DNA of 64,000 bases from Emiliania huxleyi CCMP1516 (Eukaryota). Location: the NCBI RefSeq assembly GCF_000372725.1, contig NW_005201551.1, positions 156,520-220,519 of the forward strand, read 5' to 3'. Shown piece by piece: positions 5,525 to 64,000 of this stretch (positions within the stretch are counted from its first letter, which is position 1; each line of letters starts with the position of its first letter). The translations under genes were made by a program, and so were the position numbers. The notes beneath the pieces were generated by a model, which ran no database searches, was not told the DNA's origin, and saw only the letters and a program-made list of their open reading frames with translations.

Positions 5525-7364
5525 ATGATGCAATCTTTGGCCCAGCCTGTCCCGCTGCCCTCATCACTGCTGCCGCCTCGCAGGTGGTCAGGCGGTGACG
5601 CGCTGTACGCAATCGCTTGCAACATCAGGATGCTGGCTGTCCCGTCCAAGCCGCCCCCGTCAAAGCAATATCTGAACCAGCTTCGCCTCCACAAGGCCGC
5701 GCCGGCGCCCATCCAGGTCGCAGTGTCATCGGGCACCGTCCCGTGGCCCGATCTGGTTGTGCAGGCCCGCCTTAGCCCGCCCATCCCGCACCGCTGCTCC
5801 CCTTTGCCCTCACCTCACTTTGCTGCCGCCTCGCAGGCGGGCCCAGCGGTGAGCGCGCTGTACGTAATCGCGCTGCTGCTCTCCGCACCCATCTACCTCG
5901 TCTACTATCTCCTCGACAAGTTCATCTTCCCGATCTTCCTCTACGCATTCGAGGCCATAGCGCGCACACCGTGCCTAAACGCCACAGCGCACAGTGAGGT
6001 GCTTCCGGGCGACGGCTGCGCCTTCATCACCGGCGCGGACAGTGGCATCGGCAAGGAGATCGCGCTCGACCTCGCGAATCGCGGCTTCGACCTCGTCATC
6101 ACCTCGCACAACGAGGAGCACGGGGAGGAGGTGCAACGCGAGATCGCGGCCAAGTACCCACAGATCAAGGTAATTCGACAGGACGCATGCATACTGTGTG
6201 TTGCTTGGCGGCGCATCTCGGTGACACTGAACTGTGTCTTGCCAGGTGAAGTACTTTGCGGCCGACCTGGCCGCGCCCGACGCGGCAACACACGTCTACG
6301 AGGAGATCTTCCCGTTGCTGCCGGATTGGTGCCAGGACGTCTCGATCCTGGTCAACGACGCCGGCGTTGGCTACTACGGCGCCTTTGTGAACGTGCCGAC
6401 GAAGAAGCTGCAGATGATGGTGCAGCTCAACAACAACACCCCGGCGCGCGGCTGTATGCGTAGCGCCGAGGTAGCGCCGAGTCGTGTGTAGCCACCGCGA
6501 GGAGCGAGCTCGACCTCGGTAGCAACACGCCTGGCCGTGATGTACCTCGAAATCTCTCTTGGCAGGTCGGCCTGATGAGCTACTTCCTCGAAGGGATGAT
6601 GGCGCGGAAGCGCGGCATGGTCCTCAACCTCGGCCCGCGCCAGTCGCGAGGATGTCGGGCGGGGCGGCGGCGTGTCTCGAGGTGAGAGGTGGGGCGCGAT
6701 GTCACCCGTAGGCTCGATCCAAAGCTTCGACCCAGGCCCGGCCGAGGCCACCTACGGAGCGACCAAGGCCTACTGTTGCCAGTTCTACTCCTCTTTCGCG
6801 CAGACCCCGTGACTCGAGAGGGTCGGCTCGTCTCCCTCAGGCCTTTCTGCTCAGCATCTCACGCGCGATGCACTACGAGCTTCGTTCCACCGGCATCTCC
6901 GTCACCGCCGCGTGCCCCGGATTCACGCACAGATGCCATCCAGAGACGACTCTCTAAACGGCACACCTCTTCACACTGCCGACGCGCTGTGAACAGGCAG
7001 ACGAGCTTTTGGAAGCCAGACGAGGAGCCGCTCGGCGCCAAGATCCCCTGCTTGCTGCAGCAGGCCGCGCCGTGCGCCGCCCAGTGCGTCGAGGGCATGT
7101 TTGCACGCAAGCCGTGCGCCCCCCCCCCCCCCCCTGCCCCCTCCTTGCACCCCTCTGCTTGGCATGCCATACTCTTTCCCATCCTCGCGTTGGCTGCCCG
7201 CTCTCCCTAGCTACGACTCTATAGCCCGCGGCCGCAGGTATGTCGTCACCGGCAACGTCGGCGGGCTATTCAACCGGTTCCTCGTCACCGTCGGCCAGAT
7301 GAACTCGGAGGACTTTGGGTGCTGGTTCGTCAACACGCTCTGGCGCCTCCCAAAGAAGGTATAG
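5525..7364 (+). CDS. Multi-exon short-chain dehydrogenase/reductase (17beta-HSD / 3-ketoacyl-CoA reductase-like) with N-terminal TM helix
   Basis: FITGADSGIGKEIA (TGxxxGxG), ILVNDAGVG and ATYGATKA (YxxxK) lie in successive exons. GT-AG intron at 6170-6245 and several GC-AG introns. Stop after LWRLPKKV. Start uncertain. Confidence 0.85.
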
Positions 7365-7775: not shown

Positions 7776-9642
7776 TCAGACGCAAACGACCGCCTGGGCG
7801 GTCGGGGCGGACGGCTCGCGCGCGGACCGCGCCTCACGCCCCTTGCGGCGGCCCAAATCTCGCGCGCCCTCGATCCGCTCGACGAGCTCCGGGTCTCGCC
7901 GGCGGAGGACGTGGTCCGCCTAGGGAGGGAGGGGGGGGCATGGGACAGTCGCGGCGTCGTGCGGAGCGCGTGTGAGTGGTCCGCCTCGGCGTAGCAGATT
8001 AGCAGCGTGCGCGTGCTGGTCAGGAGCGGCGACAAGCCGACCGAAACGACCGGCACAGCGAGCGCCGCGGCGAGCGCGTAGCGGCGCGGCAGCGGCAACA
8101 TCACCCAGATCGCCTGCGTCTGGCCGTGGTGGCCGAGGGCGGCGGCGAGGGCGGCACACATGGCGAGCGTGACGAGGAGGCATCCTGCGGTGGCGAGCCA
8201 GACCACGGGCGAGACGAGTAGGATGTTGGCGGCGACGTCCATGCCCGCCTTCTTGACGAGCCTATTGGTGGACGCGTCGTGGACGTGTCCGTGGACGAGT
8301 CTTGCACGCGCTCCCGGCGACGGGGGTCCCCGACGAGCGCCCGATGACGGCGCGGCCCGAGGCGAGGAAGGAGCGGCCGTACAGGCCGGTGTAGACGAGC
8401 GCCCACTCGTTGAAGGCCTCGGCCGCGCGCTTGATCGCGTCGAGCACGCAGTCGACGCAGCAATTGACGAGCTTGAGCGGCAGCCCCAGCGGGACGCAGT
8501 TGCTCATCCGCCTGTACTTGAGCTGCTTGAGCGTCGCGACGAGTGCCTGCACGACCGCCACCACGAGCGTTCCGAAGCAGATCGAGCCGAAGCAGGTCGT
8601 CATCGCCCGGAGCAGCGCGTTGGACACGACGGGCTTCAGCAGCAGGCCGACGCAAGGCGCTGGCGCTGCCATCGTCTCTGGCACAAAGACCCACGCGCCG
8701 ATTGCGCCGGCCGCGGTGACGTCGGAGACGCCCTTGCACACGTTTTGGCCCCAGTACAGCGAGAGGAGGAGGAGAAAGTAGACGGCAGCGCAGATGGCCG
8801 TCACCTCGCCAGAGGTGTACCTCGCCTCCGCGCCCTCGCCCCACTGCTGGTAGAAGTCGTCCCAGAGGTGCTCGACCACGCGCTGGATTACGTAGACGGC
8901 AAAAGGAAGCCACAGAAGAAACCAGCATGTCGCAGCGAGTGCCGAGCCGTACGCCACCTGAATAAGAGAGGTCACACGGCGTTCAGAGTGCGCAAGGCCC
9001 GGTGCGCGTGGGTGAGCACAGTGCACGCGCGGCCACCGTGATGAGGCCCGGCATCTCGAGCAGCAGCGCCGCAGATTTGGACAGCAGCGCGGCGCTGGTA
9101 TCGATCCGCCACCGGAGGAGGTAGACGCTGAGGAATATGGCGCCTCCGACCAGAGCGACGCCGAAGCCCAGGTTCGACCCGTACTCCTCCGCATAGCCAA
9201 GCTTATTGGGGCCGGCGGCGTCGGCGGCAGCAGCGACTCCGAAAGCCACGAGCGTACTGGGCACCGCAAAGAGCGTCACGTACAGCAGGCGGAGCGCCTG
9301 CGTCTCAAGCACGAGCACGAAGCAGTGCACAAACGCGAATGAAGTGCAGAGCGAGAGGGCGAGCGCTAGCGCAAGGTCGCGAGCTTGGTGGTGTTCGAAC
9401 GCCGCCTCGCCGAGGTAGCTTTCGGCGCCGAGGAAGGGCGAACCAACCCACACGACCGCAATCACGTGAGCGAGGAAGAGCCAGATTGCCCACGCGTCGC
9501 GAAGCGGCAGCGCGTCGGTCTCGTCCATTCTCAAAAAGGAGCTGTGCGCTCGCTTCCGTCGAACGGCTGCCTGCAGCTTCACGACGCCGCGCATGACGGT
9601 CTTCTCGTGGTCTGAGGCAGAGGCCCGGCTGCGAAAGAGCAT
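7776..9642 (-). CDS. Choline transporter-like (CTL/SLC44) protein, multi-exon
   Basis: Motifs 'RDAWAIWLFLAH', 'RAMTTCFGSICFGTLVVAVVQAL', 'FNEWALVYTGLYGRSFLASGR' and 'TLLICYAE', with many TM segments. Last intron at 7920-7984. Confidence 0.85.
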
Positions 9643-14158: not shown

Positions 14159-17529
<3,371 letters not shown>

Positions 17530-17629: not shown

Positions 17630-18893
17630 GAGAAGGTCAGGTGAACTTCTCCACACACACAGAAGGTGTGGTGGGGCAGGGCCAGGCTAGTCCCTCGCGT
17701 CTCCACGTCTAGACGACACAGCGGGCTCCTCGCCGCCAAACTAGCTGTGAACAGCGTCTCTACACACCTCTAGCTGTGAACAAGTGTGCCGCACCTTCTC
17801 GCCGCCAAACTAGCTGTGAACAGCGTCTCTTCACACCTCTAGCTGTGAACAGGTGTGCCGCACCTCCTCGCCGCCAAACTAGCTGTGAACAGCGTCTCTT
17901 CACACACCTAGCTGTGAACAGGTGTGCCGCACCTCCTCGCCGCCAAAGACCCACGAGAGGAACTGGGCGCCTAGATCTCGCGTCATCTCGCGTCATCTCG
18001 CGTCATCTCGCGTCATCTCGCGTCATCTCGTCCGCGAATCGCAGAGAGGGACTGCGCGCAGTAGACGCCCGTCTCGGCGAGGGCGGAGCAGGAGCCGGCG
18101 CCTAACCTCGGGGATACTCTCGGGTATCATCTCGGGTCTAGTCTCGGCGAGGGCGGAGCAGGAGCCGGCGCCGTCGTTCTGGCAAAAGGAGACGTGGGCA
18201 GACGTCACGTCTCCGATGGCGCCTGACGACGGGGCTCGGAGGAGTCTCGGAGGTGTGTCGGAGGAGTCTCGGAGGAGTGTCGGAGGTGTCTCGGAGGTGT
18301 GTCGGAGGTGTGTCGGAGTTGTGTCGGAGGTGTGTCGGAGGTGTCTCGGAGGAGTGTCGGAGGAGTGTGTCGGAGGTGTGTCGGAGGTATGTCGGAATTG
18401 GCTCGGGAGCGTCTAGGAGGGCGCCGGAGGAGAGCAGCTCGCGCAGCGCCCGCATCGCCGGGAAGAAGCGGCTCCACACGCCGTGCAGGAAGAAGAGCCC
18501 GCGCTCCCGCGCGAGCGCGAGCACCTCCGCCGCCTCTGCCGCCGTCGGCGCCATGCTCTTCTCGCAGAGAACCGCCTTGCCCGCACGCAGGCAGAGCAGC
18601 GAGTCGGAGACGTGGCGCGTCGACGGCGTCGCGACGTACACCACGTCGACGGCGGGGTCGGCAACCAGCGCCTCGTACGAGCCGTGCGCACACGCGCCCA
18701 CTAGCCCGAGCTCCGCCGCAAACGCCGCCGCGCGATCCCCGCTCCGCGAGCCAACGGCGACGACTTCGGCGTCGCCTCGCATGGAGGTGAGGACGCGGCC
18801 AAAGTCGGAGGCGATGCTGCCCGTGCCGAGAATGCCCCAGCGGACCGGACGCCGCTCCTCTGCCACAACAGACACGAGAAAGAGCGCGAACAT
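17630..18893 (-). CDS. Gfo/Idh/MocA family oxidoreductase (dihydrodiol dehydrogenase-like), multi-exon, 3' end lost in a gap
   Basis: 'VRWGILGTGSIA', 'HGSYEALVADPAVDVVYVATP', 'GKAVLCEK' and 'WSRFFPA'. Introns at 18223-18424 and 18102-18171. Confidence 0.88.
17731..17947. repeat. Tandem repeat, 69-bp period, about 3 units, intronic
   Basis: 'cgccgccaaa' recurs at 17731, 17800, 17869 and 17938. Confidence 0.92.
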
Positions 18894-28551: not shown

Positions 28552-28601
28552 TGAGCGAGTGAGCGCCTCCCTTCGCATGTTAGTGTATTTTTTTTCTCGC
28601 G

Positions 28602-30020
28602 ATGTCCACCCCGCCGCGCCGCTCGCGCCGCCTCGCCCGAGCCACAGACGCTCCCTCGCCCAGGACGCCGCCGCCCACCCGCCTCCTCGACCTCCCCACG
28701 GACCTCCTCGCGCGCGTCCTCTCTCACTTCCACAGCCCCATCGACATCGCTCGCGTCGCGGCCGTCTCGCTGCTCTTCCACGCCTCGCTTGCGCTGGAGG
28801 GCGTCCGCTTGTGGGCGCAAGGGCGCGGCTACGAGCTGCCGGCGCAGCCAGAGGATGAGAGCTGCGCCGTGCGGTGGCTGTGCTATTCGGCGCTGCTGCG
28901 CGAGTCCAACCCGCCGGCGAGGGTGGCGGCAGGCAATATGCACAGCGTCTTCATCGGCGGCGAGGGGCTCTCGTCGTGCGGCTGCGCGCCGCATCACATC
29001 CCAGGCCTCCTTGGCCATGGTGAGGGCGTGGCACGGCTCAACACGCCGACCCGCCTCCCGTCGACGCTGGGCGGCGAGCGCGCCGTGAGCGTGTCGGTTG
29101 GAGCATGGCACAGCCTCGCCCTCACCGGCGGCGGCGCCGTTTGGAGCTGGGGCCAGGGAGGCTTGGGTGCGCTGGGCCACGGTGACCAGCAGGGCCAATG
29201 GCAGCCGAAGAAGGTCGAGGCATTTGATCGCCGCATCGTCGCCGTTTCGGCGGGATGTCACAGCCTCGCCCTTACCGCCGACGGAGCCGTCTTAAGCTGG
29301 GGCTATGGCCATCTGGGCCACGGCGAGCTGCAGCTGCAGCTGCTGCCGAAGGAGATCGAGGCCTTGGCTGGGAGGCGCGTCGTCGCGGTCTCGGCGGGAG
29401 GAGGTCACAGCCTCGCCCTCACCGCCGACGGCAGTGTCTGGAGCTGGGGCTACGGTGGCTTCGGCCAGCTGGGCCACGGCGACGGACAGAACCAGCTGCT
29501 GCCCAAGAAGATCGAAGCCTTTGCTGACCAGCGCGTCGTCGCTGTGTCGGCTGGAAACGACCACGGTCTAGAGGACCACAGCTTCGCCCTAACCGCTGAC
29601 GGAGAGGTCTGGAGCTGGGGCAGTGGCGCATCTGGCAAGCTGGGCCACGGCAACTCGCTGCGGCAACTGCTGCCCAAGAAGGTCGAGGCCTTTGCTGGGC
29701 AGTGCGTCGTCGCTGTGTCGGCGGGAGTGCGTCGCGGCCTCGCCCTCACCGCCAACGGCAGCGTCTGGACCTGGGGCTTTGGAGGGCGAGGCCAGCTGGG
29801 CCACGGTGAGACGCAGGACCAGCTGCTGCCCAAGAAGATCGAGGCCTTGGCCGGCCAGCGCGACGTCGCTGTGTCGGCTGGAGGCGACCTCAGCTTCGCC
29901 CTCACCGCTGACGGCGCCGTCTTTGCCTGGGGCAGGGGCGACCTCGGCTGCCTAGGCCACGGAGAGGACCTGTCGGACCAGCTGCTGCCCAAGAAGATCG
30001 AGGCGTGGGTGCGGGACTGA
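28602..30020 (+). CDS. F-box + RCC1-repeat protein (intronless)
   Basis: F-box 'LLDLPTDLLARVLSHF...DIARVAAVSLLFH'. About 7 RCC1 repeats 'VAVSAGxxHSLALTADGxVWSWGxGxxGQLGHG'. Confidence 0.92.
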   Translation: MSTPPRRSRRLARATDAPSPRTPPPTRLLDLPTDLLARVLSHFHSPIDIARVAAVSLLFHASLALEGVRLWAQGRGYELPAQPEDESCAVRWLCYSALLRESNPPARVAAGNMHSVFIGGEGLSSCGCAPHHIPGLLGHGEGVARLNTPTRLPSTLGGERAVSVSVGAWHSLALTGGGAVWSWGQGGLGALGHGDQQGQWQPKKVEAFDRRIVAVSAGCHSLALTADGAVLSWGYGHLGHGELQLQLLPKEIEALAGRRVVAVSAGGGHSLALTADGSVWSWGYGGFGQLGHGDGQNQLLPKKIEAFADQRVVAVSAGNDHGLEDHSFALTADGEVWSWGSGASGKLGHGNSLRQLLPKKVEAFAGQCVVAVSAGVRRGLALTANGSVWTWGFGGRGQLGHGETQDQLLPKKIEALAGQRDVAVSAGGDLSFALTADGAVFAWGRGDLGCLGHGEDLSDQLLPKKIEAWVRD

Positions 30021-33214: not shown

Positions 33215-35541
33215 AATGGACCAGGGCGGAGTGGGGCAGCATGGACCAATACAGGCAAACGGGGAAGGGGGGGGGGGACTTTTGCCGCCAGCTGCCCAGC
33301 CCCTGCCGCATAGCGCGCATATTTCCTTTGCTCTCCCCTTGAGTTCCCGCAGCCAGCTGAGCCCGCCTCGCGCCCCTGCACATACTCCCTGCTCCATTTC
33401 GTGCCAGGCGCCCTCCGCAACGGCCCTCGCGGTGCTGGGCGCCGAGGCGCTCGGCTCCTCGCAGGGCGCGAGCCCCTGCAACCGCGCGCCCTCCGCCACC
33501 AGCGCCTCCGGCAGTGAGACATCGACAACCTCTTCACAGTCTTCGGACGGCACCGCGGACCTACCCGAGGTTGGCGCCGCGCCGTCGAGCTGCAGCGGTA
33601 CGTGCGTATGGGACCCAGCCACGGTCGGCGAGTCGAGCGAGACGCCGCTCGAGGACTACCTCGGCCGCGCCAGGCGCCCCTGGGGAGGGGCCCGGGGAGA
33701 GGGAGGGGGGAGAAGAGATCTCGCCCCGCGAATTAATGATTCTGTTTGGCCACGTGGCCCGCGCCAGGCGCCTTGGGGAGGGGCCGGGGAGAAGGAGGGG
33801 GGAGAAGAGATCTCGCCCCAAGATGAATACAATGAATGATTACTGTATTGGCCACCTCGCCCGCGCAGGCGCCCCCGGGGGGGGGGGGGGGGAGTATCGC
33901 TCCCCGAGATTGACATTAATAGAACTCTGTTATTACAACCGCAGGAGCGACCTCTCGGACTCCCGCCTGCGGAGCGTGTGGGAGGAGGCCGCCCTATCGG
34001 CCCTTCAGTCCAGCAAGGGAGACCACGCCGCGGCGCTGGCGGCCTTGCGGCTCGAGGAGCAGGCGGCGGCGGCGTCGCTCTTCTCTTCGGACGAGGTGGA
34101 TGAGCTCCGGTCGCTGCACGCGCGCTTCGGCGGCACCGACCTACGCCTCGTCACGAGGGCGCTCGGCGGGCGCCGCTCATTGGCCGAGGTCGTCGCGGCG
34201 GCATACAGATGTTTGCCTGCCCTGCGGAGAGACACGGACGTGGAGACGGTCTCGCTGCGTAGCCCACGCCAGCCGTCGCTTGCGCGGGCCTCCGTCGCGC
34301 GGGCCTCTGTCGACTCGCTCACCTCACTCGGCGCGATGATGGCGCACCGGCTGATCGAGGCTGCCCCCGCGGCCCTCTCCGTCGAGGCCGCCTCCGGCGA
34401 GTGGCTGCTCGCCGACTTGTGCGACGACGGCACGATTCTGCACTTGCCGGTCGATGGCGGCGTGCCGCAGCGATTTCGATCTCCCGGCGGGTTCGTCCGC
34501 TTCCTTCGCCCGTGGTTGAGCGCGGCTTCAGTGGAGGGGGGAAGCTGGACGGCGGTGCACTACAAGGGTTTGCCGCTCGACCTGATCCGCAAAGCCGCCA
34601 CCAGCGATGCAGACGCGTTGGGCGCGGTTGCCGCCGCCTCCGGTTCCCCCTCTGACGGCCGCGAGCCCACGCCACTCTCGCCCGGCGGCGCCGCCGCCAG
34701 CCAGCTTCGCCAAGCCTTACACGCCTCCTACCTGTTGGAGCGACGCACCGACGGCGCGCACGAACGATTGCTAGTGGACGACGCGGAGTTGGAGACGTAC
34801 GAAGTGGATTGCATCCTCGATCGCCGCCGCTCCAAACGCATGGACGGCGGAGCCTACGAGTACTTGGTATCGTGGGCGGGCTACGGCCCGGCGGACAATA
34901 CGTGGGAGCCGCGCGAATCCCTGCTGTGCCACGAATTGGTGGAGACGTTTGAGCTGGCGTTCGAGGCGCGTCGGCCCGCCGCCTCCCGCAGCCACGCCCG
35001 CCCCGCCGGCAACCGCGGTCGCGGTTCCTCGTCGCCGTGCCAGCCGAGGAGGCTTCCGAAAAAGAGGGAGCATGTTGCCAAGCGACGCGCCTCGCCGCCG
35101 CAGCCCTCCCGCGTGAGCAAGGCCGCGCGGGTGCCGGCGGTGGCGCCGGTCGTGGACCTCGTGGCGCTCGCAGCCAAGGAGCGGGAGGAGCAGCGCCGCC
35201 CTTGCATGTGCAGCGCGCCCTGCCGGCTGCAGCCGCTGATTGAGTCTGGTTGCATCGTGGCCGGCTCCCTCGCGCTCTCCGTGTGCATCAAGGGCGCGCT
35301 CACGTCCGCCGATGTGAGCGAGACCGGCGCGATCCGGCTCCCCTCCTCTTCGGGCGGCGGCGAGCTGCTCGAGCTCCAGACTCCATGCGCGCTGCTCCGC
35401 GTGGCACGCCGCCGCGCGGGCGTCGCCGTCGACAAGGGGCCGAGCGCCCGGACGACTGTGTTTTACAAGGGCGTCAGCCTCAACGCGCTTGCGCAGCCTG
35501 GCCAGGTGCGACGCGACCGCCGCAGCCGCGCGGCGACCTAA
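33215..35541 (+). CDS. Chromatin protein: ELM2/SANT-like + RAMA-like + chromodomain + second RAMA-like; GC-AG intron at 33674-33944
   Basis: Chromo: 'YEVDCILDRR...YEYLVSWAGYGPADNTWEPRESL'. SANT-like: 'FSSDEVDELRSLHARFGGTDLRLV'. RAMA-like: 'ADLCDDGTI...FRSPGGFV...WTAVHYKGLPLD' and 'ADVSETGAI...TTVFYKGVSLN'. Start uncertain. Confidence 0.8.
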
Positions 35542-38161: not shown

Positions 38162-41100
38162 TGCCGCCGCCGCCGCCGCCACCGCCGTCACCACCCGGAC
38201 ATTGCCAAGCATGGTGCTCTAGCAATACCAACAGGCGCGCCGCTTGCTGCGCCTTCAACCCGCCACTCCCAGACCTCACCCTGCACGCTGCGTTAGACCG
38301 GGGTCCCTGCAATTGGCGCGATGGAGCCCTAACTCGATGCCCTTCCCCGCCATAGCTGGTCGAAGAAGTGCAACTGGGCCGGATGCCCCGCCTGCAGCGA
38401 CTGCTCCGCCGTCGCGAGGCAATCAACCGCCACGTGCAAAGCGCACTGCCCCTTCGAGAACTACCCGTGGGCTGTCAAGTTTGTCGCCAGGAGACCCCTA
38501 CAAGAAAGGTGCCAGTAGATACGTCCACCCCTCCTGATGCGTGTTTCAGGTGTACCTGGGCCGGCTGCAGTGGATGCTCTCCCGAATGCTCGGACTCGAG
38601 CTTGGCATCCACCCTGCCGCCTCCGTCACCCTCGCCCTCGGCGACGGGCGGCGCGTGCATGCCGCACTGCCCATTTGAGAAGCACCCATGGACCGTCAAG
38701 TGCGGATGGAAGGGCTGTAGTGGATGCGTGCCTGAGTGTGTCGCTCCTCCCTCCCCACCCCCCTCATCCTCACCTGCGCCGCCACCCCCCTCGCCCACAC
38801 CGCCTCCGTCGGCCTCCCCAACGCCACCACCATCACCCTCGTCGCCACCACCGTCACCCTCGTCGCCACCACCACCGCCCTCGTCACCGCCGCCGTCGCC
38901 AGGACCAGCGCCTCCCCCGCCGTCTGCCTCGCCGACTCCACCGTTGCCATCACTACCACCGCCGCCTTCGCCGCCTCTGCCCTCACCGATGCCCTCACCA
39001 CCACCACCCTCGCCCTCTCCGCCACCACCCTCACCCGTGCCGCCGCCGCCGCCGCTGGCGCCACCACCCTCGGCATTACCTTCACCCCCACCACTGCCCT
39101 CGCCGCCTCCGCACACCTCCCCGTCGCCACCGCCCCCATCCGCCTCCCCTTCCCCACCGCCCTCCGCCTCGCCGTTGCCTCCGCCTTCTGCATCCCCGAT
39201 GCCACCCTCCGCGTCACCGTCTCCACCGCCACCCAGCCCGGCGCCACCGTCTCCATCGCCTCCATCGCCGTCACCGCCCCCACCAACGCCCGCATACCCG
39301 GTTCAAATGTCGCCACCTCCATCAACGCCTCCCGTGGTCGTCGCTGACGACGATCTTGTGATGTGCTGCTTTGCCATGATTGCGAGCTGCCTGGCTTGCT
39401 CTGCCGGCGTGAGCGTGAGCGAGTACTGTGAGTCGAACCCAAAGGTTGATGGTTGCGAGGAGGCTTCTCCGCCGCCGTCGCCCAACCCGCCGGCATCGAT
39501 GAGCTGCAGCATTCCCGTCTCCACGCGGCCTCAAGAGTACTGCGCTGATCGGCCTCCGCTATGGCAAGGGGTTAAGCAAGGGGGCACGGCGGCGTGTAAG
39601 AAGTACTGCGAGGGCTTTCCCGGCTGCAAGTTCTTTGCGTCGTGGGCGGCAACCAGCTGGTGCTCGATACGCAGCGGACCGGGCGCTGGTGCGGGCTTCC
39701 CAGCTCTCTTTCAAAGCACCCTCTGCGAACAGGTGCCGGCTGGTCGCAAGCTGCGACCGGGTGTGGGAGTCGTCGACGGACGACATCGTCGCAATGGGAT
39801 GCGCGCTGGTCGCGCCTCGAGAGCCTCCGCCGCCCCCGTCGCTGCCACCGCCACCCGCAGACCCACCAGTCGAGTCCCCGTCACAGCCTCCACAACCGCC
39901 GCCCGGGCCCCCGCCTTCCCCGATGAACCTCCGCAACATCTTTTGGATCATCGCCGATGACCTCCGACCGCAGCTCGGCGTGTACGGCTCTCCGGAGATC
40001 AAGTCGCCCAACATCGACGCGCTGGCGGCCGACAGCACCCTCTTCGAGCGAGCGTACTGCCAGGTGCAGCCGCCCTCGATAGAGAAATGTGGCCCGTTGT
40101 GGACGCGGTTCATTGACCTCTGCTTGCACATGACGTGTGGAGTGGCAGGGCGCTTCCGTGGCTTTTGGTGAGGAGACCTCTACCTTTCGCCAACCATAGG
40201 TGCCCACTTGCGGTGCCTCGCGCGCGAGCATGTTGACTGGGCTGTATGCATCGCCGACCCGCTTCATCAACTTCAACACTCGCGCGGACCAGGACGCGGC
40301 CAACGTGCCAGATGTGGCGAAAACATTTCGGATGGCCGGGTGCAGCGCGTGGCGACAGGGTCACAGCATGGGCGAGACGTGATTGCCGCGACTCTGCGAT
40401 AGGTACAAGGCCATCTCCAACGGCAAGATCTACCACCACAGTGGCGACAACAAGGAGTCGTGGGACGAGGTCTGCGGTCACGACGCTGGCAGCATCGACG
40501 GACTGCCTTGTAACTACACCGCACGGCCAGGCTCGATGTGCTGGTGTGAGCTTCAGTCTGAGACAGCCATTGCCAAAAGCCGTTCCCTACGGCCCTCTTG
40601 CACCCCACTGTATCGTCTCCCTTCGAGTCCGCCCATTTCCTCCGGCCCTGGATTCAATTAACCCCCCCCCCTTTTCAACCAAGGCCCCCCCCCCCCCCCC
40701 TTTCCCCAACAGCATCTGGCCACAGAGAGGCCAAACCCGCAAGGGGCTCGCCAAGGCTACGGTCTGCCCTGCATTCGTGTCGGGTGGATTGATATGTAGC
40801 ACCTGTTCACAGCGAACACTGTAAGTAGGCCAACTCGGATGGATCGTTGGAGAACGAGCGGGAGAGTGGCAAGCAACTTCGGGCATACGTCAAGACACTG
40901 CAGGGCAGCGCACGCTTTCAGGCATGCCTCTGGTGCGAATCTCGCCGACATCTCGACAATCTCGGTTCAGCGTCAGCTTTGATCGTATCAGGCGAACGGA
41001 CAGGGCCAGTGCTTTGGGTGTGGCTGGCCCGCATGGAGTGGGACCGACGTGCACGACGACGGCCTTGTCGAGCGCGGCTACCCCGACGGCAAGATGGTTG

Positions 41101-42044
41101 TCAAGATCTTCAACGACCTCCGGGTCGCAAAAGTGGAGGCAAAGCCCTTCTTCATCACGTGCGGCTTCGTGCGGCCGCACCTTCCCTTTGTTGCGCCGCT
41201 AAGGGATTGGGAGGCGTACGAGAGGGCCGATGTTCAAGTGCCGCCGTGGGGCAACAACCGCATCGCCGAGGGGGCGCCCCCACGGGCACTGCACTACCGC
41301 GAGCTCGGCGTCTACGACGTTGGCACGAACCCCGTGACGGACAACTCAGGAGGGTACCTCATGCCCGAGTACGGGCTGGGCAATCCGCTCTCGGAGGAGA
41401 TCTCGCGCTCGCTTGTGCATGGCTACTACGCGACGGTAACCTACGTTGACCGGCTCGTTGGGCACGTCATTGGCGAACTCAAGTCACTCGAAATGTACGA
41501 CGAGACGATCATCGTCTTCAACAGTGACCACGGCTATCAGCTGGGCGAGCACGGCACGTGGTGCAAACACTCACTTTTCGAGACGTCGCTGCGCATCCCG
41601 CTCTTCATCAAGGCGCCGGGCATCGCCCCGTCGCGCGTGCCGGCGCTCGTGGAAAATGTCGACATATACCCCACCCTGCTCGACCTCGTCGGGATCGCAG
41701 CGCCACCGCACCTCCACGGCAAGAGTCTCGTTCCAGTCATGCGCGATCCCAGCGCACCCCACAAGGGCCCCGTCTTTGCCCGCTACCGCGACGGCGACTC
41801 GGTGCGCTTTCCGGACCTCGCGTACAGCGAGTATTGCCTGCGGAACTGTTGGTCTCCCGAGACCTGCTCTCAATACTGCGCGACTCCGCACCCCACCGAC
41901 CGCATGCTCTACGACCATACAATCGACCCCAACGAGGACCTCAACCGATGGAACACAGGGTGGAACCGATCGCAATACGCCGGGCAGATCCACGAGATGC
42001 GTGCCGCGCTCGACAGGCACCGGCGCGAGAGGGATCGCGCATAG
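37718..42044 (+). CDS. Cys-rich / Pro-rich (extensin-like) stalk fused to an iduronate-2-sulfatase-like S1 sulfatase, multi-exon
   Basis: 'NIFWIIADDLRP...SPNIDALA...FERAYCQ|VPTCGASRASMLTG', 'GFVRPHLPF' and 'SDHGYQLGEHGTWCKHSLFE'. A Pro-rich tract is in frame directly upstream. 5' extent uncertain. Confidence 0.8.
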
Positions 42045-42934: not shown

Positions 42935-44550
42935 TCAGATGTCGCCGACAAACTCGGCGCCCTCCTTGGAGCGCTGCAGCCACTTTGCACAGTTGAGCGC
43001 CGTCGGCACGACGATGACGGCGCCCGCGGCGGCGCCGAGCAGTTCGTCGGAGACCTGGACGCCCGCGACGAGCGCGGGCAGGTACTTCGCGGCGTAGGCG
43101 AGGCCGCCCGAGAGCGCGAGCAGCTTTGCGAGGAAGGCGGCGTTGCCGTCCGCCGCCCACGCCTCGCCCAAGTCCTCCCACCCGACCAGTGCGGCGGCCT
43201 GCGACGGCGGCGGCGCAGCGGAAGCGGAAGCGGCGGCGGAAGCGGCGGCGGAAGCGGCGGCGGAAGCGGCGGCGGAAGCGGCGGCGGAAGCGGCGGCGGC
43301 AGAGGAGGCGGCGGACTCATCGGACGCTGGTGCAGACGCGGCGCCACCTTCTGATGGCGACTCGCCCCGGGCGGATGCTAGGAGGGCCGCCCAGGCGGCA
43401 GCTGCCTCGTCTGCGCCCGCCTGCCATGTCCAGCCACTGGCGAGTGCGAGGCGGAGGCAGGCGAGCGCCAGCGTGGTGTTGCCGACACACGTCATCGCCG
43501 CCTGCAGGAGATATGGGGAGATAAAGGGAGATGGGGGGAGAAAGGGGGAGAAAGGGGGAGATATGGGGAGATATGGGGAGATGCGGTATCGCCGCCTGCA
43601 GCGTGACGCACCACGCGATGGCGGGCGCCTGCAGGAGATATGGGGAGATATGGGGAGAGGTGGGGAGATGTGGGGAGAGATGGGGAGACGGCGGGCGCGT
43701 TGTAGAAGAGGTGGTACGTGCACGCGACAATCCCCGACGTGTGGAGCGGCAGCATGCCCCAGGTGACGCCTTTATTAATTAACGAGCGTTAATAATTACC
43801 ATTGCATTAATTAACGAGGCGCAGCATGCCCCACGTGACGCCTCTCCACCTGGGTTGTGCCACCGCGTCGGCGTACCGCCAGGCGAGCCCCATCGCCACA
43901 AGCCACTCCACCAGCGACGAGGTGTGAATGACCCACGTGGGCATCGACAGCGCGTTGGACGGCTCCGCGGGCCAAAGCCCGGCGGGCGCGTTGCCGATCC
44001 CGCCCAGCCAAGGCGTGTGCACCGAAGCCCCGCCGGAGGCAAAGACCGCCACCGCCGACAGCGCCGAGAGGGAACCGAGCGCGGTGGCGGCAGCGCGGAG
44101 CGACGCTTCGTCCGCCGCCGGAGCGCGCACGCCCTTCTCCTCCACGTCGATCGCGTCCCGAAACCCGAAGACGACGACGCAGTTGGTGATGGCGAGCAAC
44201 GACTCGGCCGATCCATGCAGCCAATCGGCGTCGGCGAGGCTGACGCCGAAGAGGGCACCAGCGCCAATCGCCGCCGGGATGGAGCCGAAGACGAAGGCCA
44301 GCAGGAAGGTGAGGCCAAATGTCACTCCCGGAGGCGCGCCAACCGTCGGGTGCTTTAGCCAGTACAGCATCGCCAGCCACGGAAAGAGCGAGGCGCCAAA
44401 CAGAGATCCGGCAAGCTCGTCAGCGGTCGAGGAGAGGGCTCCGCCGCCGTCGGCTAGCAGGAGGAGCTCTGGCGCGGCCAGCGTCACAGGGCCGGCACGC
44501 AACGGTGAGGTACTTGCCGGGCCAAGCCGAGGGAGCAACGGAGTGAGCAT
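42935..44550 (-). CDS. Ycf49-like membrane protein (DUF3593 + DUF2499); introns at 43770-43841, 43629-43698, 43502-43595
   Basis: 'LFGASLFPWLAMLYWL...DWLHGSAESLLAITN' and 'NALSMPTWVIHTSSLVEWLVAM'. The spliced product reads 'GMLPLHTSGIVACTYHLFYNAPAIAWCVTLQAAMTCVGN'. Confidence 0.88.
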
Positions 44551-44636
44551 GTGCTGCCGATGTGATGTCTCGAGGTCTCGGGATATCGGCTGGGAAAAAA
44601 GAAAAAGCGATGTTGTCCGTTTTCCTTCCTTCTTTT

Positions 44637-44693
44637 TCGAGGTTCTCGAGGTGGATATCCTTTGGCCGCGTTGGGTAGCGAGGATTGGTGTGA
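44637..44693 (-). mobile_element. Repeat family B, shortest copy
   Basis: Same terminal sequence as 9696, 22961 and 61620. Confidence 0.8.
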
Positions 44694-44944
44694 GGCTGAC
44701 TAGCTTTTGGTTGAAATAAAATGTCTGCGCTCCCGTAGTTCGCACTCGTTCCTCTGCGAGTCAACGCACAACGGACCGCAAGGCGCGAGACACACACAAC
44801 ACCCGTACTCTCCCGCACCATCTCCGTCGCTCGGTTGCTCAGCCATACCACCTCAGGGAGGCGGCCAGGGCTCTACATAGACTCGCTCGGTCGAAAGAGC
44901 CCCAGACAGATTGGCACCCATGCCTCTCTCTACATGTACATCTT

Positions 44945-45957: not shown

Positions 45958-46729
45958 ATCGTTGCCGACGTGTCGCATCTTTGCCGGCAGAGGCGCGGGC
46001 GGCTGCACTGTGGGGGGGGTACCGAGCAGTGCACGGCCGCTCCCCTGCTGTGATACACGAGACCCAGGTCCACGCACCCTCCATTTGCATAACCCGCGCC
46101 CCAAAACATCAAGACATGCCAGCCCCCTGCTCTCCACGGTGGTCATTGACACACACGTCACATGGTCACCCCCGCCCTAGCGATATGTCCACCGGGCGCC
46201 GCTCCAACAGCACATCGAGCCGCCCGCCGCCCGCCCCGCCAGTGCTCGCGCTCACCTCGCAGACGCGCGCGGCGACCCTCCGCCCTCGCTGCCCTCCCGC
46301 TGCGAGTCCTGCAGCAGCGCCGTCCCCTGAGGAAAGGAAGGCACGGTGAGGCAAGGTGAGGGAAGGGAAGGTGAGGCAAGGCAAGGGAAGCTTCTCCACA
46401 CACACGAGGTGGTGGGGCAAGCGCGGCATTGGAAGTGCAAGGCCCGGTGCGCGTGGGTGGGCGGTGTGAGCGGTGTGAGCGGTGTGCGAGTGAGTGATTG
46501 TCTCTGCGTCTGTGTGCTGTGTGCCTCGCCGCCCTCCTCGTCCTCCTCCGATGGAACCTCGGTGTACGAAGGGCCAAACAGCGGCAGCCGAGACCACTGG
46601 CAGAGCAGCGCCTAAAAACGAGTCAACGCGGCCTTACGGGACATGGATCAGCGGCAGCCGAGACCACTCGCAGAGCAGCGCCGCGCACGCGCAGTCGACG
46701 GCCGCGCCGCACGCGCCACGCCGCCGCAC

Positions 46730-49700
46730 CTAGTTAAATTTAATCCGCGATTCGCCGCGCCGAACTCTGAACTGGCCGCACGCGCCGCGCCGCCGCCGCA
46801 CCCACGCCGAAGTCTCGTCGACGACGAGGCAGAGGCAGACGGCGGAGACGATCGCGAGGCAGCCGCCTGATATGGGGAGATGTGGGGAGATGCGGGGAGA
46901 TGCGGGGAGGTATGGGGAGGTATGGGGAGAGATGAGCTGGCCGCTCTCTGGGGATTCGGCATCTGGAGACGTGGGGAGATATGGGGAGGTATGGGGAGGT
47001 ATGGGGAGATGTGGGGAGGTATGGGGAGATATGGGGAGGTATGGGGAGGTATGGGGAGATGTGGGGAGGTATGGGGAGATATGGGGAGGTATGGGGAGAT
47101 ATGGGGAGATGTGGGGAGACGTGGGGAGATATGGGGAGGTATGGGGAGGGATGCAGATTCGTCATCTACACAAGCGCCGGTGGAGACCATCAACGTCTCC
47201 ATCCCCGCCTCCTCGAGCAGCCACCCGCCAACCACAGGCCCAAAGACCTACACGTATGAGTCGCTCCTCGCTGGAACCAGCTATGAATCAGCGGCCAGCC
47301 GCCCGCCGCCGGCCCGAAGACCTGCCCGAACCGGTCGATGGAGCCGGCCAGGCCCTGCATCACCCCTTGCTCCACCGGCACGTGCCTGCGGGAGGTTGCG
47401 GGAGATTGCGGGAGATTGCGGGAGGTTGCGGGAGGTTGCGGGAGGTTGCGGGAGGTTGCGGGAGATTGCGGGAGGTTGCGGGAGGTTGCGGGAGGTTGCG
47501 GGAGGTTGCGGGAGGTTGCGGGAGATTGCGGGAGATGTGGCCGGGGGGTTTTGTATTTGCCTCCGCCCACTAGCTCCCGGCTGTCTCTCGGCGGCATCTC
47601 GGCGGCATCTGGAGCATCTCGGCTGCATCTCAGCTGCATCTCGGCTGCCTCCCGGCTGCCTCTCGGCTGCCTCCCAGCTGCTTCCCGGCTGTGTCTCTCG
47701 GCTGCCTCTCGGCTGCATCTCGGCTGCATCTCGTCTGCCTCTCGGCTGCCTCTCGTCTGCATCTCGGCTGCATCTCGGCTGCATCTCGGCTGCATCTCGG
47801 CTGCATCTCGGCTGCATCTCGTCTGCATCTCGGCTGCATCTCACGAGAAGAGCGTCGAGATGCACGGCACGGCCAGCCCGTACCCCAGCGAGATGAGTCC
47901 GAGGCAGGGGACGAGGGAGGCGACCTAATTAATTAACTAGGCGCCCCCTCTTAATTCATTAGATGAGTCCGAGGCAGGGGACGAGGGAGGCGACCTAATT
48001 AATTAATTCGGCGCCCCCTCTTAATTCATTAGATGAGTCCGAGGCAGGGGACGAGGGAGGCGACCTAATTAATTAATTAGGCGCCCCCTCTTAATTCATT
48101 AGATGAGTCCGAGGCAGGGGACGAGGGAGGCGACCTAATTAATTAACTAGGCGCCCCCTCTTAATTCATTAGATGAGTCCGAGGCAGGGGACGAGGGATG
48201 CGACCTAATTAATTAATTAGGCGCCCCCTCTTAATTCATTAGATGAGTCCGAGGCAGGGGACGAGGGATGCGACCTAATGAATTAATTAGGCGCCCCCTC
48301 TTAATTCATTAGATGAGTCCGAGGCAGGGGACGAGGGAGGCGACCTAATCAATTAATTCGGCGCCCCCTCTTAATTCATTAGTTTGGCTGAGGCAGGGGA
48401 CGAGGGATGCGACCGAGGCGACGGCCGCAAGGCCCGCGTAGCCGAGCGATGTGCATGCCATGGCCAGCACGAGCGTGCGCTGCTCGCCCAGGGACCCGTT
48501 GATGACGCGCACGAGCACGCCCTGCACGAACATGCCTCCCACGCCCATCGCAGAGACGGCGAACCCAACCTGAGAGAGGGGTGTGTGGGGGGAGAGACGG
48601 GAGATATGGAGAGACGTGGCTCCCACGCCCCATCGCAGAGACGGCGAACCCAACCTGAGAGAGGGGTGTGTGGGGGGAGAGAGACGGGAGAGATGGAGAG
48701 ACATGGCTCCCACGCCCCATCGCAGAGACCGGCGAACCCAACCTGAGCGACGCGGGCGCCCCAACTGATTCATCCTTCACCCCCCCCACCCCACCCACCC
48801 ACACCCACACCTCGCAAAGACCATCTAGGCCTCGAGATAGGGGGAGATAGGGGGAGATAGGGGGAGATAGGGGGGAGATAGGGGGAGATAGGGGGAGATA
48901 GGGGGAGATAGGGGGGAGATGGGGGGAGATGGGGGGAGAGAGGGGGAGAGAGGGGGAGATAGGGGGAGAGAGGGGCACCTCCTTTGGCCCAAAGTCGAGC
49001 GCCTCCTCGCACAGGTACGGGAAGTTGGACCTAAAAAGAAGTCTACGATGCCGACACAATTCTTTTCTAGGTAAAGCACAGGTACGGGAAGTTGGACTTG
49101 TACGCCGCGAAGGCGAAGCGGAAGAAGAAGTTGAGCGCGAGCAGCGGCACCACGTTGAACTTTGCGAGGTAGCTTAGCCTGCGCGCTGAACACGCCGACA
49201 TGAGGGCGGGAAGACTTCTCGTCTACCTTGCCCAGAGCGCGCACACTAGCGCCCGCGCGCTGAGTACGCCGACATGAGGGCGGGAAAACGGTACTTGTGC
49301 AGCGTCTTCAGAGCACCGCGTGAATACGGGGGGGGGGGGGGGGGGCGACTACAGTTGAATACGGCTGAATACGGCCGAGTACGGCGGAGTGCGTGTCCTC
49401 TCGAGCGCTGGTTGGAGCACAAGAACACGTCTTCCGCTTCTAGGTGGTACGCGCAGCAGCCACAGGCTGCGCGCGCCGCGGCCACACGGCCCGCAGTTCT
49501 CGAGCACCGACGAGCCTTCGTCAAGCAGACACCCGGGGTCGGGGCGGGAGATGCCATCTCGCGCTGTGTGCTCAGATCTCCCCACACCTCCCCCCATCTC
49601 CCCCCATCTCCCCAGATCTCCCCCGATCTGGCGCAGCGTGCTCGCAGCACCGTGTGGAGACGAGGGGTGGGAGGACGGTGAGTACACTCTTGAGTACGGC

Positions 49701-50096: not shown

Positions 50097-51543
50097 TGCC
50101 TCCGCCACCTTTGCCGCCTCCGCCGCCGCCGCTTCCGCCCTCGCCCGTCGACCGCTCCATCTGCACTGGGGGCGTGGGGCTGGCTGCCGAGGGCTGCCTG
50201 GAGAGGTTTGCGGAAGACGACTGCCGCGAGAGGCGAGAGTCGATCAGCCTGTTCACAGCGGGAGGTGTGAAGAGCCGCCGTTCACACCTCACCACCGAGT
50301 CGGAGCTGCCGAGGCACTTCTCGTCCGGCTGCCAGAGCGCGCACACTAGAGCCCCGGAGATGAAGATTGCGCAAGCGACCAGCGCGCACACGCGCTTGCC
50401 GCCGAGCGCCGTCGCGCCTAGCGGCCGGGGGAGGGGTAGCTGACCTTTGGCCGTCGCGAGGCACCAGCGGCCTGCTCTTTTCACGCGCATCTACGCTCTT
50501 GGCGCTGCGCTACGCGTGTTGCGTGCGCAGCGGTGCGGCAGTCAGTCTTGGCTGCAGCGCAGCGGACCTCGGCTGCATCCCGCGCCTTGCAGCAGCGCCG
50601 GCGCAAACTCCGAGACATCTCCCCATATCTCCCCATCTCTCCCCATATCCCGCGCCTTGCAGCAGCGCCGGCGCAAACTCCGAGACGGCGCCGCCAATGA
50701 GAGGGCCGAGGATGAGAGCGCCTGCGGGCGTGGCGTCAGGGTTAGGGCTGGGGTTAGGGTTAGGGTCAGGGTTAGGGTTAGGGTTAGGGTTAGGGTCAGG
50801 ATTAGGGGTAGGCTTAGGGTTGGGCTTAGGGTCAGGGTCAGGGTCAGGGCCAGGGTAGGGTCTGGGAAGGGTTAGGGATAGGGTAGGGTCTGGGATAGGG
50901 TTAGGGTTAGGGTAGGGTCAGGGTCAGGGTCAGGGTAGGGTCTGGGATAGGGTTAGGGATAGAGCGCCGTTGAGGGTGACACCCATCAGCCCAAAGGTGC
51001 CTAAGGCGGACGCGCACGGGCATGCGTCAGCCTCAGCGCGTCGGTGAGGCGACCATCATGCGGCAGCTTGCTGCCCGTCCGCTTGTCCTTACTGGTAGTG
51101 TCAGCAAAGTACGCGCGGAACAGGGCGATCTGGAAGCCGGATCCGGTGATGACGCGCGCGGCGAGCATCATCGGGTAGGAGGAGGAGAGGCCGAGCAGCA
51201 GGCAGCCCGCTGCAGACACCAGCAGCGACACGAAGATGACGTTCCGCCGGCCGAGCGAGTCGGAGAGCGCGCCGAGCAGCGGCGAGAGGATCGTCTGGCT
51301 CATCCAGGTGGCGGACTGGAGGACGCCGTAGGCGGAGCGGGAGTAGCCCATCTCGCGCACTAGGAAGGGAAGCACCGGCACCAGCACCGTCTGGCCCAGC
51401 TGCGCCAGCAGGATGATCATGTACGGCCCGCACATGAACGTCGCCGGCCCGCAGGCGCCGGGGTGCCAGCCCTTGGCGATGCCCATCGGCAGGTGGATGG
51501 TGACGGGCACCCATATCTCCTCGGCGCCGCCGCCGGCCGCCAT
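46730..51543 (-). CDS. Major facilitator superfamily transporter (TetA/DHA1-like) with many repeat-filled introns
   Basis: 'SPLLGALSDSLGRRNV' (MFS motif A), 'RAYFADTT', 'ILGPLIGG', 'NFFFRFAFAAYKSNF' and 'EQGVMQGLAGSIDRFGQVFGP'. Exact 3' end uncertain. Confidence 0.85.
47892..48414. repeat. Intronic tandem array, 70-bp period, 7 units (exon copy + TTAA-rich spacer)
   Basis: 'agatgagtccgaggcagggg' recurs at 47891, 47961, 48031, 48101, 48171, 48241 and 48311. Confidence 0.97.
50735..50960 (+). repeat. Interstitial telomere-like (TTAGGG/TCAGGG)n tract inside an MFS intron
   Basis: Degenerate hexamer repeats gggtta/gggtca. Confidence 0.92.
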
Positions 51544-61484: not shown

Positions 61485-61619
61485 CGCTTCGCCTGCCTGT
61501 GTAAGGCCGATCGACTTTGAGCACCTGTCAACAGCGGCTCGGGCAGCGGCCGCGGCCGCAAACGTGAGCTGAGGGCGTGTCAAGATTGTTTGAGGATTGT
61601 TTGCGATTTTGGTTGAATC

Positions 61620-63223: not shown

Positions 63224-64000
63224 TCACCCCTCGCCCCTCACCGGCTGGCAGAGCAGCTCCGCGTCCGACTCCGAGTTTGCCACCATCGCGAGCACGTATC
63301 CGTGGCACTGCAGCGGCACGCAGAAACACCCGAGCGTCTTGCCGCGCAGGTCGCGCCGCGCCTGCGGAGCCGCGAAAAGAGGTGTGAACCTGTCGGCAGG
63401 TGTGAACGGCGCCTCTTGCCGCGCAGGTCCCCCGCCGCGCCTCCGCCCGCATCGCCGCACGCTCCGGTGCCATCAGCCAGCTGGCGTACTGCCGAATCAC
63501 GGACCCGCGGCTCGCGCCTCCCCCAATCGAGAAGGGGTGAGTTAGTTAATAGAGGTGAAGGGGAATTGATTCATCAACCCCCCCCCCCCCCCTCCCCTCC
63601 CCTCCACCCCCGAGAACGGGCTGATTAGCAAATGGGAACTCAACAACTAGTTGATAATAACGAGCGCGCCTCCCCCCAGCGAGAACGAGTGAACTAGCAA
63701 ATGCGAATGCAATAACTAATCGATGAAGGAGCGCGCCTCCCCCCATCGAGAACGGGTTCCCCCACCCCCACTTGTGGTGCCCCCCCGACGCGCTCTTCCC
63801 CTTCGGCGCCTATTAATTGATGGCAATAGCTCATTACACCTATTAATTAATGGCAATAGCTCTTCCCCTTCGGCGCCGCGTCCGGCCGGCCGACGTACAC
63901 CTATTAATTAATGCCAATGAACTAGCTCATTAAGCTCTTCCTCGTTGGTGGAGACGGGGGAGGCGTGGGGGGGGTCGGAGACGGAAGCCGAGTCAGAGGC
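63224..64000 (-). CDS. DUF4326-like protein, multi-exon, 5' end outside the window
   Basis: 'WGNPFS', 'IRQYASWL' and 'LRGKTLGCFCVPLQCHGYVL'. Intron at 63362-63440. Confidence 0.7.

Follow-up and report, generated by a model that had tools for sequence, protein, structure and literature searches.

The Ycf49-like gene and its three introns

The window, by which we mean the whole GC-rich, 64,000-nt stretch of Emiliania huxleyi DNA that was analysed, carries on its minus strand a Ycf49-like gene whose four exons (44550-43842, 43769-43699, 43628-43596 and 43501-42935) encode a protein of 459 aa (Table 1). Its three introns sit at codons 237, 261 and 272 of the protein, and each begins with a copy of the start of the exon that follows. 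The next exon is copied in the first 21 nt of intron 1 with one mismatch, AG preceding, and in the first 9 nt of intron 2, and in intron 3 the splice point lies inside the repeat. The last 22 nt of introns 2 and 3 are identical. An earlier note on this DNA, made from the letters alone, had reported this exon-start copy at the head of all three introns, and we recovered all three repeat pairs at the same positions.

The three introns are real spliced introns with RNA support, and the junctions drawn in the earlier note agree with the transcripts. Precisely 72, 70 and 94 nt are absent from contigs of three runs from three studies, namely X11 (RNA), X14 (a poly-A metatranscriptome) and X5 (RNA by guess), the corresponding joints being 43762>43835 (present in X11, X14 and X5), 43619>43690 and 43493>43588. 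The DNA-like run X6 shows none of the three joints, and its contigs cross the intron boundaries. At 43762 the RNA carries the variant base of the downstream repeat copy, in line with the GC...AG register. Every joint of the introns defined from transcripts in the window fits G[CT]...AG, and those of the Ycf49-like gene are GC...AG. When the spliced protein was aligned with 18 homologues picked from the 120 listed, all three junctions were gap-free; the nearest named homologue is that of Prymnesium parvum, with 74% identity. Close homologues are full-length proteins on contigs of 8-45 kb (gene caller unrecorded), which suggests that the orthologues in relatives are intron-free.

Table 1. Positions of the genes, introns, repeat copies and arrays discussed in the text, numbered from the first letter of the window.
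Feature	Position	Strand	Description
Ycf49-like gene (DUF3593 + DUF2499)	42935..44550	-	Pfam match, open spliced frame, gap-free homologue alignment
Ycf49-like intron 1	43770..43841	-	72 nt, GC...AG, AT-rich filler
Ycf49-like intron 2	43629..43698	-	70 nt, GC...AG, 10-mer repeat filler
Ycf49-like intron 3	43502..43595	-	94 nt, GC...AG, 10-mer repeat filler
Donor-side repeat copy, intron 1	43821..43843	-	partner 43749-43771; 23 nt, 1 mismatch
Donor-side repeat copy, intron 2	43690..43698	-	partner 43620-43628; 9 nt exact
Donor-side repeat copy, intron 3	43588..43601	-	partner 43494-43507; 14 nt exact, of which 6 nt precede the splice point and 8 nt follow it
MFS-gene intron	46612..46681	-	70 nt: 33-nt exon copy (1 mismatch) and filler
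MFS-gene intron	46730..46801	-	72 nt: ~26-nt exon copy with small indel and filler of single-copy depth; joint 46718>46791
CTL (choline-transporter-like) gene intron	7920..7984	-	65 nt, AG + 9-nt repeat; X1 contig pieces
Short-chain dehydrogenase intron	6927..6996	+	70 nt, GC donor, decayed family-A module; joint 6926>6997 in X12 and X1
Family-A intron candidate (HGH1-like)	17277..17343	+	67 nt: 27-nt exon copy (1 mismatch) and 40-nt module
Oxidoreductase intron candidate	18102..18171	-	70 nt, 31-nt exact exon copy
MFS intron candidate	49031..49097	-	67 nt, 22-nt exact exon copy, GT donor
MFS intron candidate	50722..50967	-	246 nt, 7-nt exon copy, telomere-like CCCTAA filler
Intron candidate (DUF4326 gene)	63362..63440	-	79 nt; filler with antisense family-A module pieces
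Secondary event	50577..50686	-	40-nt duplication across predicted donor, antisense 10-mer filler, period 70
Tandem array	47891..48414	-	70-nt unit (exon copy and AT-rich filler) x7.5
Similar tandem arrays	16274-16443 and 17726-17947		69 nt

Exon-start repeats elsewhere in the window

Sixteen introns of the window could be defined from transcripts: three in the Ycf49-like gene, three in an MFS gene, seven in a short-chain dehydrogenase gene and three in the CTL gene, the latter from contig pieces of X1, a run of unrecorded kind. Twelve of them are 65-79 nt long. Six of the sixteen open with a clear copy of the exon that follows, namely the four that the earlier note had named and two MFS introns (~26 and 33 nt). 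The other ten have no clear repeat, the match to the next exon being only 1-4 nt in the seven short-chain dehydrogenase introns. Outside the earlier list a long repeat is thus found in two of 12 transcript-defined introns, and the next-exon repeat at the intron start is not universal in the window. When introns and exons of the same 16 introns were paired without regard to position, at least 4 exact bases were shared by 4.6% of the unmatched pairs, and the occurrence of the repeat among the 16 exceeds chance. Of the two additional MFS introns, that at 46612..46681 has its joint (46599>46670) in X11 and X5 and a filler depth of 10.8 in X6, consistent with a single copy.

A repeat of this kind had been claimed in the earlier note for six sites in unrelated genes, and it is present at all six. 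Measured from intron position +1, the exact match is 9 nt in the CTL intron, 21 nt at 17277-17343 and 8 nt at 63362-63440, where a decayed exon copy with a small indel extends over ~25 nt. The status of the six as spliced introns is uneven: the CTL intron is indicated by pieces of one X1 contig, and for the five candidates at 17277, 18102, 49031, 50722 and 63362 removal gives a plausible open frame. The further claim that removing each intron restores a conserved frame accordingly holds for the Ycf49-like gene, where the alignment with 18 homologues is gap-free, and is reduced to a plausible open frame for these five. Arrays in which whole units are repeated in tandem have periods of 67-73 nt.

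Shared and unique fillers

Between the exon copy and the 3′ splice site lies a filler, and several kinds recur within the window: a module ending GCTGTGAACAG, arrays of 10-11-mers, AT-rich TTAATTAA stretches and telomere-like repeats. The fillers of the Ycf49-like gene are dispersed repeats, with a summed depth in X6 of 25,569 in the bin of the 10-mer filler and 298 in the AT-rich bin against 8-10 in the flanks (summed depth does not equal copy number). The two MFS fillers have X6 depths of ~8-11, near single copy. The earlier statement that the filler differs each time therefore had to be given up, since at least 124 metagenome loci carry one and the same 40-nt module and the Ycf49-like fillers are dispersed; many fillers are unique, although some are shared. 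Among 55 fillers other than the module (non-A), compared with a 162-kb sample, 38 lack both a local match of at least 14 nt and a match of at least 16 nt in other loci, 13 are recurrent and 9 have local matches. Non-A duplication-plus-filler events span 58-80 nt in 34 of 41 cases, in a set that was found via the repeat and sorted into heuristic classes with some rows misclassed. Relative to the gene strand the 10-11-mer arrays run either way, a regex search giving 32 hits in one orientation and 25 in the other. A pattern search with the module gave no match in viral contigs and prokaryote genomes, and no locus was found in viral contigs with the Ycf49-like protein of a relative.

A 40-nt module family in metagenome loci

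The module, which defines family A, allowed intron structure to be studied at many loci. Copies were chosen in metagenome contigs by the inner filler pattern alone, independently of the repeat, which gave at least 124 loci; among the matches listed, 93 of 119 copies were kept, those near a contig end, duplicates and 26 in a tandem context having been removed. A copy of the downstream sequence lies upstream of the module with a score of at least 10 in 54 of these 93 listed copies, against 0.0005 in cross-locus shuffles, and 69 of the 93 lie above the 99th null percentile when gaps are allowed. The exon-start match suggested in the earlier note thus stands far above its shuffled controls (0.05%) in copies picked for their filler.

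In the set scoring at least 8 (n = 59, among the matches listed) the unit measures 68.3±4.0 nt, with a range of 59-78, and the duplicate 8-42 nt (mean 23.3, SD 7.8), so that the variable repeat length noted earlier is seen within a single family. The clean junctions (34 of 50) give a module of 40±3 nt, a duplicate of 28±5.5 nt and a total of 67±4 nt, and module length does not follow duplication length (r = -0.09). The SD of the total length, 3.8-4.0, is tighter than in four simulations with a lower bound only (SD 5.9-8.1). This near-constant total length, and the bias towards coding, sense-strand sites described below, had been overlooked in the earlier note. No clear base preference is seen at the far end of the duplicated stretch.

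By eye, direct repeats of 11 nt can be seen at the termini of the module consensus and a hairpin inside it; it has no terminal inverted repeats, and the module carries no poly(A) or constant tail. Rfam searches of eight loci gave 28 matches, all below the gathering score, and no common RNA fold was found in six window introns, with five of six z-scores within ±1. In most family-A introns the exon copy starts in register at intron position +1 and traces of an older donor are absent; for the most part the 3′ splice site comes from the module and the 5′ site from the duplicate. Because the search pattern included the 3′ end of the module, a constant 3′ end is built into the set of sense copies. 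Among antisense copies, again by eye, the terminal AG is intact in three, although it is not an acceptor there (L043, L086 and L102), and five are truncated or fragmentary. The near-fixed size and the intact antisense ends of the module are element-like. The short-chain dehydrogenase intron at 6927-6996, a decayed member, is the only module-bearing intron with transcript support for splicing of the whole unit.

Three other readings of these units were considered and set aside. A module broadly truncated at its 5′ end had been suggested by a correlation of -0.88 between the duplicate and the remainder, which was partly a measuring effect, and clean junctions give 40±3 nt. Movement of whole parent introns with foreign 5′ ends was rejected since low-scoring copies are, by eye, mostly decayed duplications. 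Breaks in methylated linkers found no backing, the duplicated stretch having no excess of CpG (0.134, with 0.132-0.166 in the flanks).

Coding context and splice donors

Among the matches listed, 89 of 93 module copies are followed by GC, GT or GA, the downstream flank scores as sense coding in 72 of 91 as opposed to 30 of 400 intergenic controls, and after collapsing, the sense strand has the higher score at 55 of 59 sites; the coding score comes from a model trained on six window genes, with controls that are its training data. From random breaks with later selection one would expect numerous copies in non-coding DNA, an expectation that assembly bias toward unique coding DNA may soften.

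The donors of the 59 copies are GC in 26, GT in 25, GA in 5 and other in 3. The base before the donor is G in 53 of 59 and AG precedes it in only 19 of 59, and there is little donor information beyond G|G[CT]. In the coding sequence of the window GGC outnumbers GGT by 221 to 65, and family-A sites use GC in 45 and GT in 39, with GT favoured approximately threefold per available site. GC donors nevertheless make up around half because donors come from exon sequence, and the proposal that a duplicated G|GC accounts for the excess of GC donors is borne out to the extent that donors are recruited from duplicated exon sequence, about half of them GC. The proportion of GC donors in E. huxleyi has been given as 56-65% and ascribed to genome GC content, in passages that make no mention of junction repeats (PMC4028052). 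Donors borrowed from GC-rich exons offer a testable source for this unexplained majority.

Origin of the introns

We infer with high confidence that these introns are gains, made by duplication plus filler whatever the route. As to the route, we favour repair of staggered double-strand breaks that captured templated filler, followed by a splicing filter, and give this explanation an even chance. Opposite-strand nicks some 8-40 nt apart in an exon would be opened and both overhangs filled in, which would duplicate the stretch between the nicks, and a filler of about 35-60 nt would be copied through microhomology, the template being a repeat already present in another intron, a neighbouring intron or a piece of unique DNA. 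Such an insertion would survive in an exon only if the first copy started G|GY or G|GA and could act as donor, if a final AG were supplied by the filler or the repeat, and if the unit reached ~60 nt. Splicing would then drop one copy together with the filler and restore the protein exactly. Later the intronic copy would decay, recombination between the paired copies could raise the number of units, and existing introns could receive new rounds of duplication plus filler.

Several features of the junctions and fillers resemble those left by repair. In 50 junctions, 18 are direct, with a mean overlap of 3.4 nt against 0.7 nt in simulations, and 32 have 1-23 extra bases. The identical 22-nt ends of Ycf49-like introns 2 and 3 and the two orientations of the 10-11-mer arrays belong with these signs. 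One filler in locus L030 is a 44-nt inverted copy of the next intron's module, private bases included; two mirror-image introns (L043 and L025) have a 3′ end that copies the upstream exon and an antisense filler, and fragments of the module are iterated at other periods in L043, L072 and L077. Duplication plus filler has also struck existing splice sites, in the window at 50577 and 15151 and in L005, L072 and L085, and the few such events that were measured are 62, 63, 70, 70, 73, 84 and 103 nt long. The pointer to staggered-break repair in the earlier note is therefore partly upheld, by the variable, long duplications and the repair-like signs, but plain repair leaves the coding and sense bias and the near-constant length unexplained. 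Because of the sense-coding bias, the intact module ends and the tight length, a transcription- or RNA-linked step is possible.

RNA-templated insertion is the main rival because module copies sit in coding exons on the sense strand. A reverse transcriptase would use or make a nick at G|GY and, starting at the terminal AG, copy a template that could be a short non-autonomous RNA or the 3′ part of an intron already spliced out, and a second-strand nick 20-35 nt away would produce a long, variable duplication, as in target-primed reverse transcription. Insertion of non-LTR elements and SINEs by that process gives variable target duplications, a fixed 3′ end and 5′ junctions with microhomology or extra bases. 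Like such insertions, the units described here combine a variable, long duplication with a fixed element end, which is the 3′ splice site; unlike them, they showed no tail, no broad 5′ truncation and no tRNA-like head, and are far shorter. Any intron end could serve as RNA template, and therefore both module families and unique fillers would be expected. The strong coding and sense bias and the intact module end of the three antisense copies also fit, as does the supplement of a survey of introners, in which 74-86% of the listed E. huxleyi introners lie in genes compared with a genic share of 40% (PMC9860276). Against it, the module keeps its length whatever the size of the duplication, lacks a poly(A) or constant tail and gave no Rfam match at the gathering score in eight loci, and low-scoring copies look by eye like decayed duplications in the main, not like foreign 5′ ends of parent introns. 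Inverted local copying, iterated fragments and 10-11-mer arrays running both ways are also simpler to explain at the DNA level, and on balance we regard insertion from RNA as a serious but unlikely route.

A true short mobile element, that is, an introner of an unusual class made up of the 40-nt module and its kin and mobilised by an enzyme of its own that would leave a stagger of 20-35 nt, seems improbable. The module is conserved, nearly fixed in length and present in at least 124 loci, the element would bring the 3′ splice site while the duplication provided the 5′ site, an arrangement also described for Polarella classes 4, 5, 6, 8 and 10 (10.1101/2020.10.14.339549), and E. huxleyi families appear in the supplements of introner surveys; unique fillers would then represent old or low-copy families. 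This reading is at odds with a duplication whose length is not fixed, a consensus free of terminal inverted repeats, ragged 5′ junctions, and the same geometry in introns with many unrelated and unique fillers.

Less probable again is the remodelling of old introns, in which the positions would be ancient and the exon copy would have been written into the 5′ end later by slippage or local duplication. Secondary duplication-plus-filler events do strike existing splice sites, and many introns of the same length have no repeat. Furthermore, no empty-site allele was found: DNA runs X6, X7 and X9, from two studies, have none at the 13 joints listed and extend through the three CTL introns, no cross-locus empty site was found for 59 queries, and an all-against-all comparison of loci gave no presence/absence pair, its 20 spanning matches being self-matches caused by the repeat. 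The lack of an empty allele, like the ten of 16 transcript-defined introns without a clear repeat, counts against break repair as well. The only variation seen is in unit copy number, locus L076 having one extra unit relative to window 17277-17343. Remodelling is opposed by the in-register start of the copy at intron +1 with no older donor left in most family-A introns, and by the full-length related proteins on contigs of 8-45 kb, for which the gene caller is unrecorded. Finally, although the window has gaps and many tandem repeats and direct repeats at a joint are a known signature of reverse-transcriptase template switching, such switching or assembly duplication is very unlikely and can be dismissed, given exact skips in three studies, a GC...AG register that the retained variant base fits, joints that are all G[CT]...AG, restoration of a conserved gap-free protein, and the same structures in independent DNA runs and metagenome contigs.

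Comparison with known routes of intron gain

On present evidence the intron architecture is real, RNA-supported and widespread, and is a variant of known routes of intron gain, not a new category. A close parallel for break repair is found in Daphnia pulex, where 33 neointrons with exon-end repeats of 4-12 bp have been ascribed to staggered double-strand breaks (PMC4202315), and a handful of similar introns is described in Drosophila (PMC2809761). As in Daphnia, the end of the adjacent exon is repeated at the far end of the intron, the source of the inserted sequence is often unidentifiable and secondary insertions follow. In contrast to the short Daphnia repeats, those described here measure 8-42 nt and average close to 25 nt in the majority of a large family. 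Many fillers are shared, the total length stays around 68 nt, and the GC, GT or GA donor is provided by the duplicate. Direct repeats in the vicinity of splice sites are also described in a wide survey whose taxa, as presented, do not include haptophytes (PMC11782384).

Introners of Micromonas, Aureococcus, Symbiodinium and Polarella have fixed duplications of 3-9 nt and often terminal inverted repeats (PMC9860276; 10.1101/2020.10.14.339549; PMC11282704). The present introns share with them a repeated sequence that makes introns in many genes, both orientations, GC and GA donors, and a 3′ AG from the element with a 5′ site from the target duplication. However, the element of an introner corresponds to approximately the whole intron, whereas here about 40% of the intron is a locus-specific duplicate and the filler varies, so that what is shared between the introns of many unrelated genes is the filler only. 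In place of the fixed 3-9 nt duplication and terminal inverted repeats of a DNA-transposon introner, we found duplications of 8-42 nt (n = 59) and no such inverted repeats.

Introns arising by tandem genomic duplication resemble these in that a duplicated exon supplies a splice site and splicing restores the frame (PMC3443670). They differ in that here ~40 nt of foreign filler lies between the copies and is in most cases the source of the AG; both splice sites come from a duplicated AG|GY in a minority of loci (L001, L061 and L123). A full-text literature search, mostly outside subscription journals, returned no account of long exon-start duplications in haptophyte introns, and PMC10290126 and PMC13508280 had nothing bearing on these introns.

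The origin of spliceosomal introns is a long-standing question, and break repair as a source has so far rested on a few dozen cases with short repeats. One lineage now appears to hold many young introns with a long and measurable footprint. We also raise, as a rather doubtful suggestion, an undescribed gene-directed process that would cut exons with a stagger of 20-35 nt, write the 3′ portion of an existing intron into the cut, probably by way of RNA, until a set size of around 68 nt is reached, and would have made most introns of the lineage. If this process were true, it would explain the GC-donor majority and the repeat-filled introns; introns would copy their own acceptor halves, and each new donor would be borrowed exon sequence.

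Introner families listed for E. huxleyi

Emiliania is not named in the main texts of two introner surveys, PMC9860276 and PMC12130899, and Emiliania huxleyi is listed in the supplements of both. Tables 5-6 of PMC9860276 give five families with 653 copies and mean lengths of 70, 70, 37, 37 and 37, the 37-nt families having 54-57% GC and the duplication being entered as '?' or absent. Dataset S2 of PMC12130899 gives three families of class Unknown or LTR with automatic duplication calls of 2-4 nt, one of them annotated '10bp terminal direct repeats'. The published survey asks that similarity begin within 10 intronic bases of each end, and most duplicate-bearing introns would therefore be missed; the introns described here thus form a class that a search for whole-intron similarity would largely miss or mis-bound. 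Within the module, an inner GT...AG segment is 37 nt long in 64 of 70 copies and has 55.6% GC, and the listed 37-nt families are probably this module with a mis-set 5′ boundary, a match made by length and GC and not by sequence. If the inner 37 nt alone were spliced out, 37 of 48 copies would suffer a frameshift, and the long duplicate therefore probably belongs to the true intron. Gene models are predicted to contain systematic errors, in the form of 37-nt calls inside introns of ~68 nt.

Module copies in inverted and antisense orientation

At L030 (1200-1365, minus strand), one of the metagenome-contig loci found by the inner pattern of the recurrent 40-nt filler module, two neighbouring introns are separated by 31 nt of exon, and in one of them the filler reproduces the adjoining intron's module over 44 nt in inverted form. 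Antisense module fragments, iterated as a 16-mer and a 13-mer, make up the filler of two neighbouring intron candidates of 68 and 69 nt at a second such locus (L043, approximately 463-680); both candidates are of the mirror type, with the end of the upstream exon copied at the intron 3′ end. On a single contig (L016), a module-bearing intron and its flanks occur as a tandem array and also as an inverted duplicate.

Donor sites, other fillers and long introns

The predicted donor was GA in 5 of the 59 module-bearing units with a repeat score of at least 8 (e.g. L021, L033, L061 and L109). These predicted donors resemble the GA donors reported from E. huxleyi and dinoflagellates, where a minority of introns have them.

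A further filler of approximately 23 nt is common to unrelated introns at 8958-9036 and 46327-46524 of the window (both minus strand), and represents another dispersed family because depth summed over the bin 46398-46515, which is not a copy number, was 7,128 in the DNA-like run X6. Telomere-like CCCTAA repeats, C-rich on the sense strand, serve as filler in the intron candidate at 50722-50967 and in L072. Long introns (47386-47842 and others) often carry G-rich GAGAT-type arrays by the donor and C-rich ATCTC-type arrays by the acceptor, and possible pairing between the two could shorten the effective intron length.

Neighbouring genes and repeats outside the introns

The remaining genes identified are ordinary neighbours; a Pfam search of the frames tried gave no confirmation of the names HGH1-like and DUF4326, which the earlier note assigns to other genes.

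Neighbouring genes in the window and the basis of their assignment
Gene	Window position	Basis
Leucine-rich-repeat genes (paralogous)	2189-3781 and 60351-62030	Pfam
RAP/FAST-domain gene	20269-22221	Pfam
F-box/RCC1 gene	28584-30017	Pfam
RAMA plus chromodomain gene	33361-35538	Pfam
Sulfatase gene	40983-42041	Pfam

In the short-chain dehydrogenase gene, approximately 50 nt around the first acceptor (5821-5871) recur 253 nt upstream (5568-5616), where the transcript contigs begin. Directly upstream of several genes lies a highly repeated, non-intronic element (9600-10500, 22950-23050, 44630-44700 and 61600-62000), for which the summed DNA depth, again not a copy number, exceeded 100,000 in DNA run X7 at 9600-9905.
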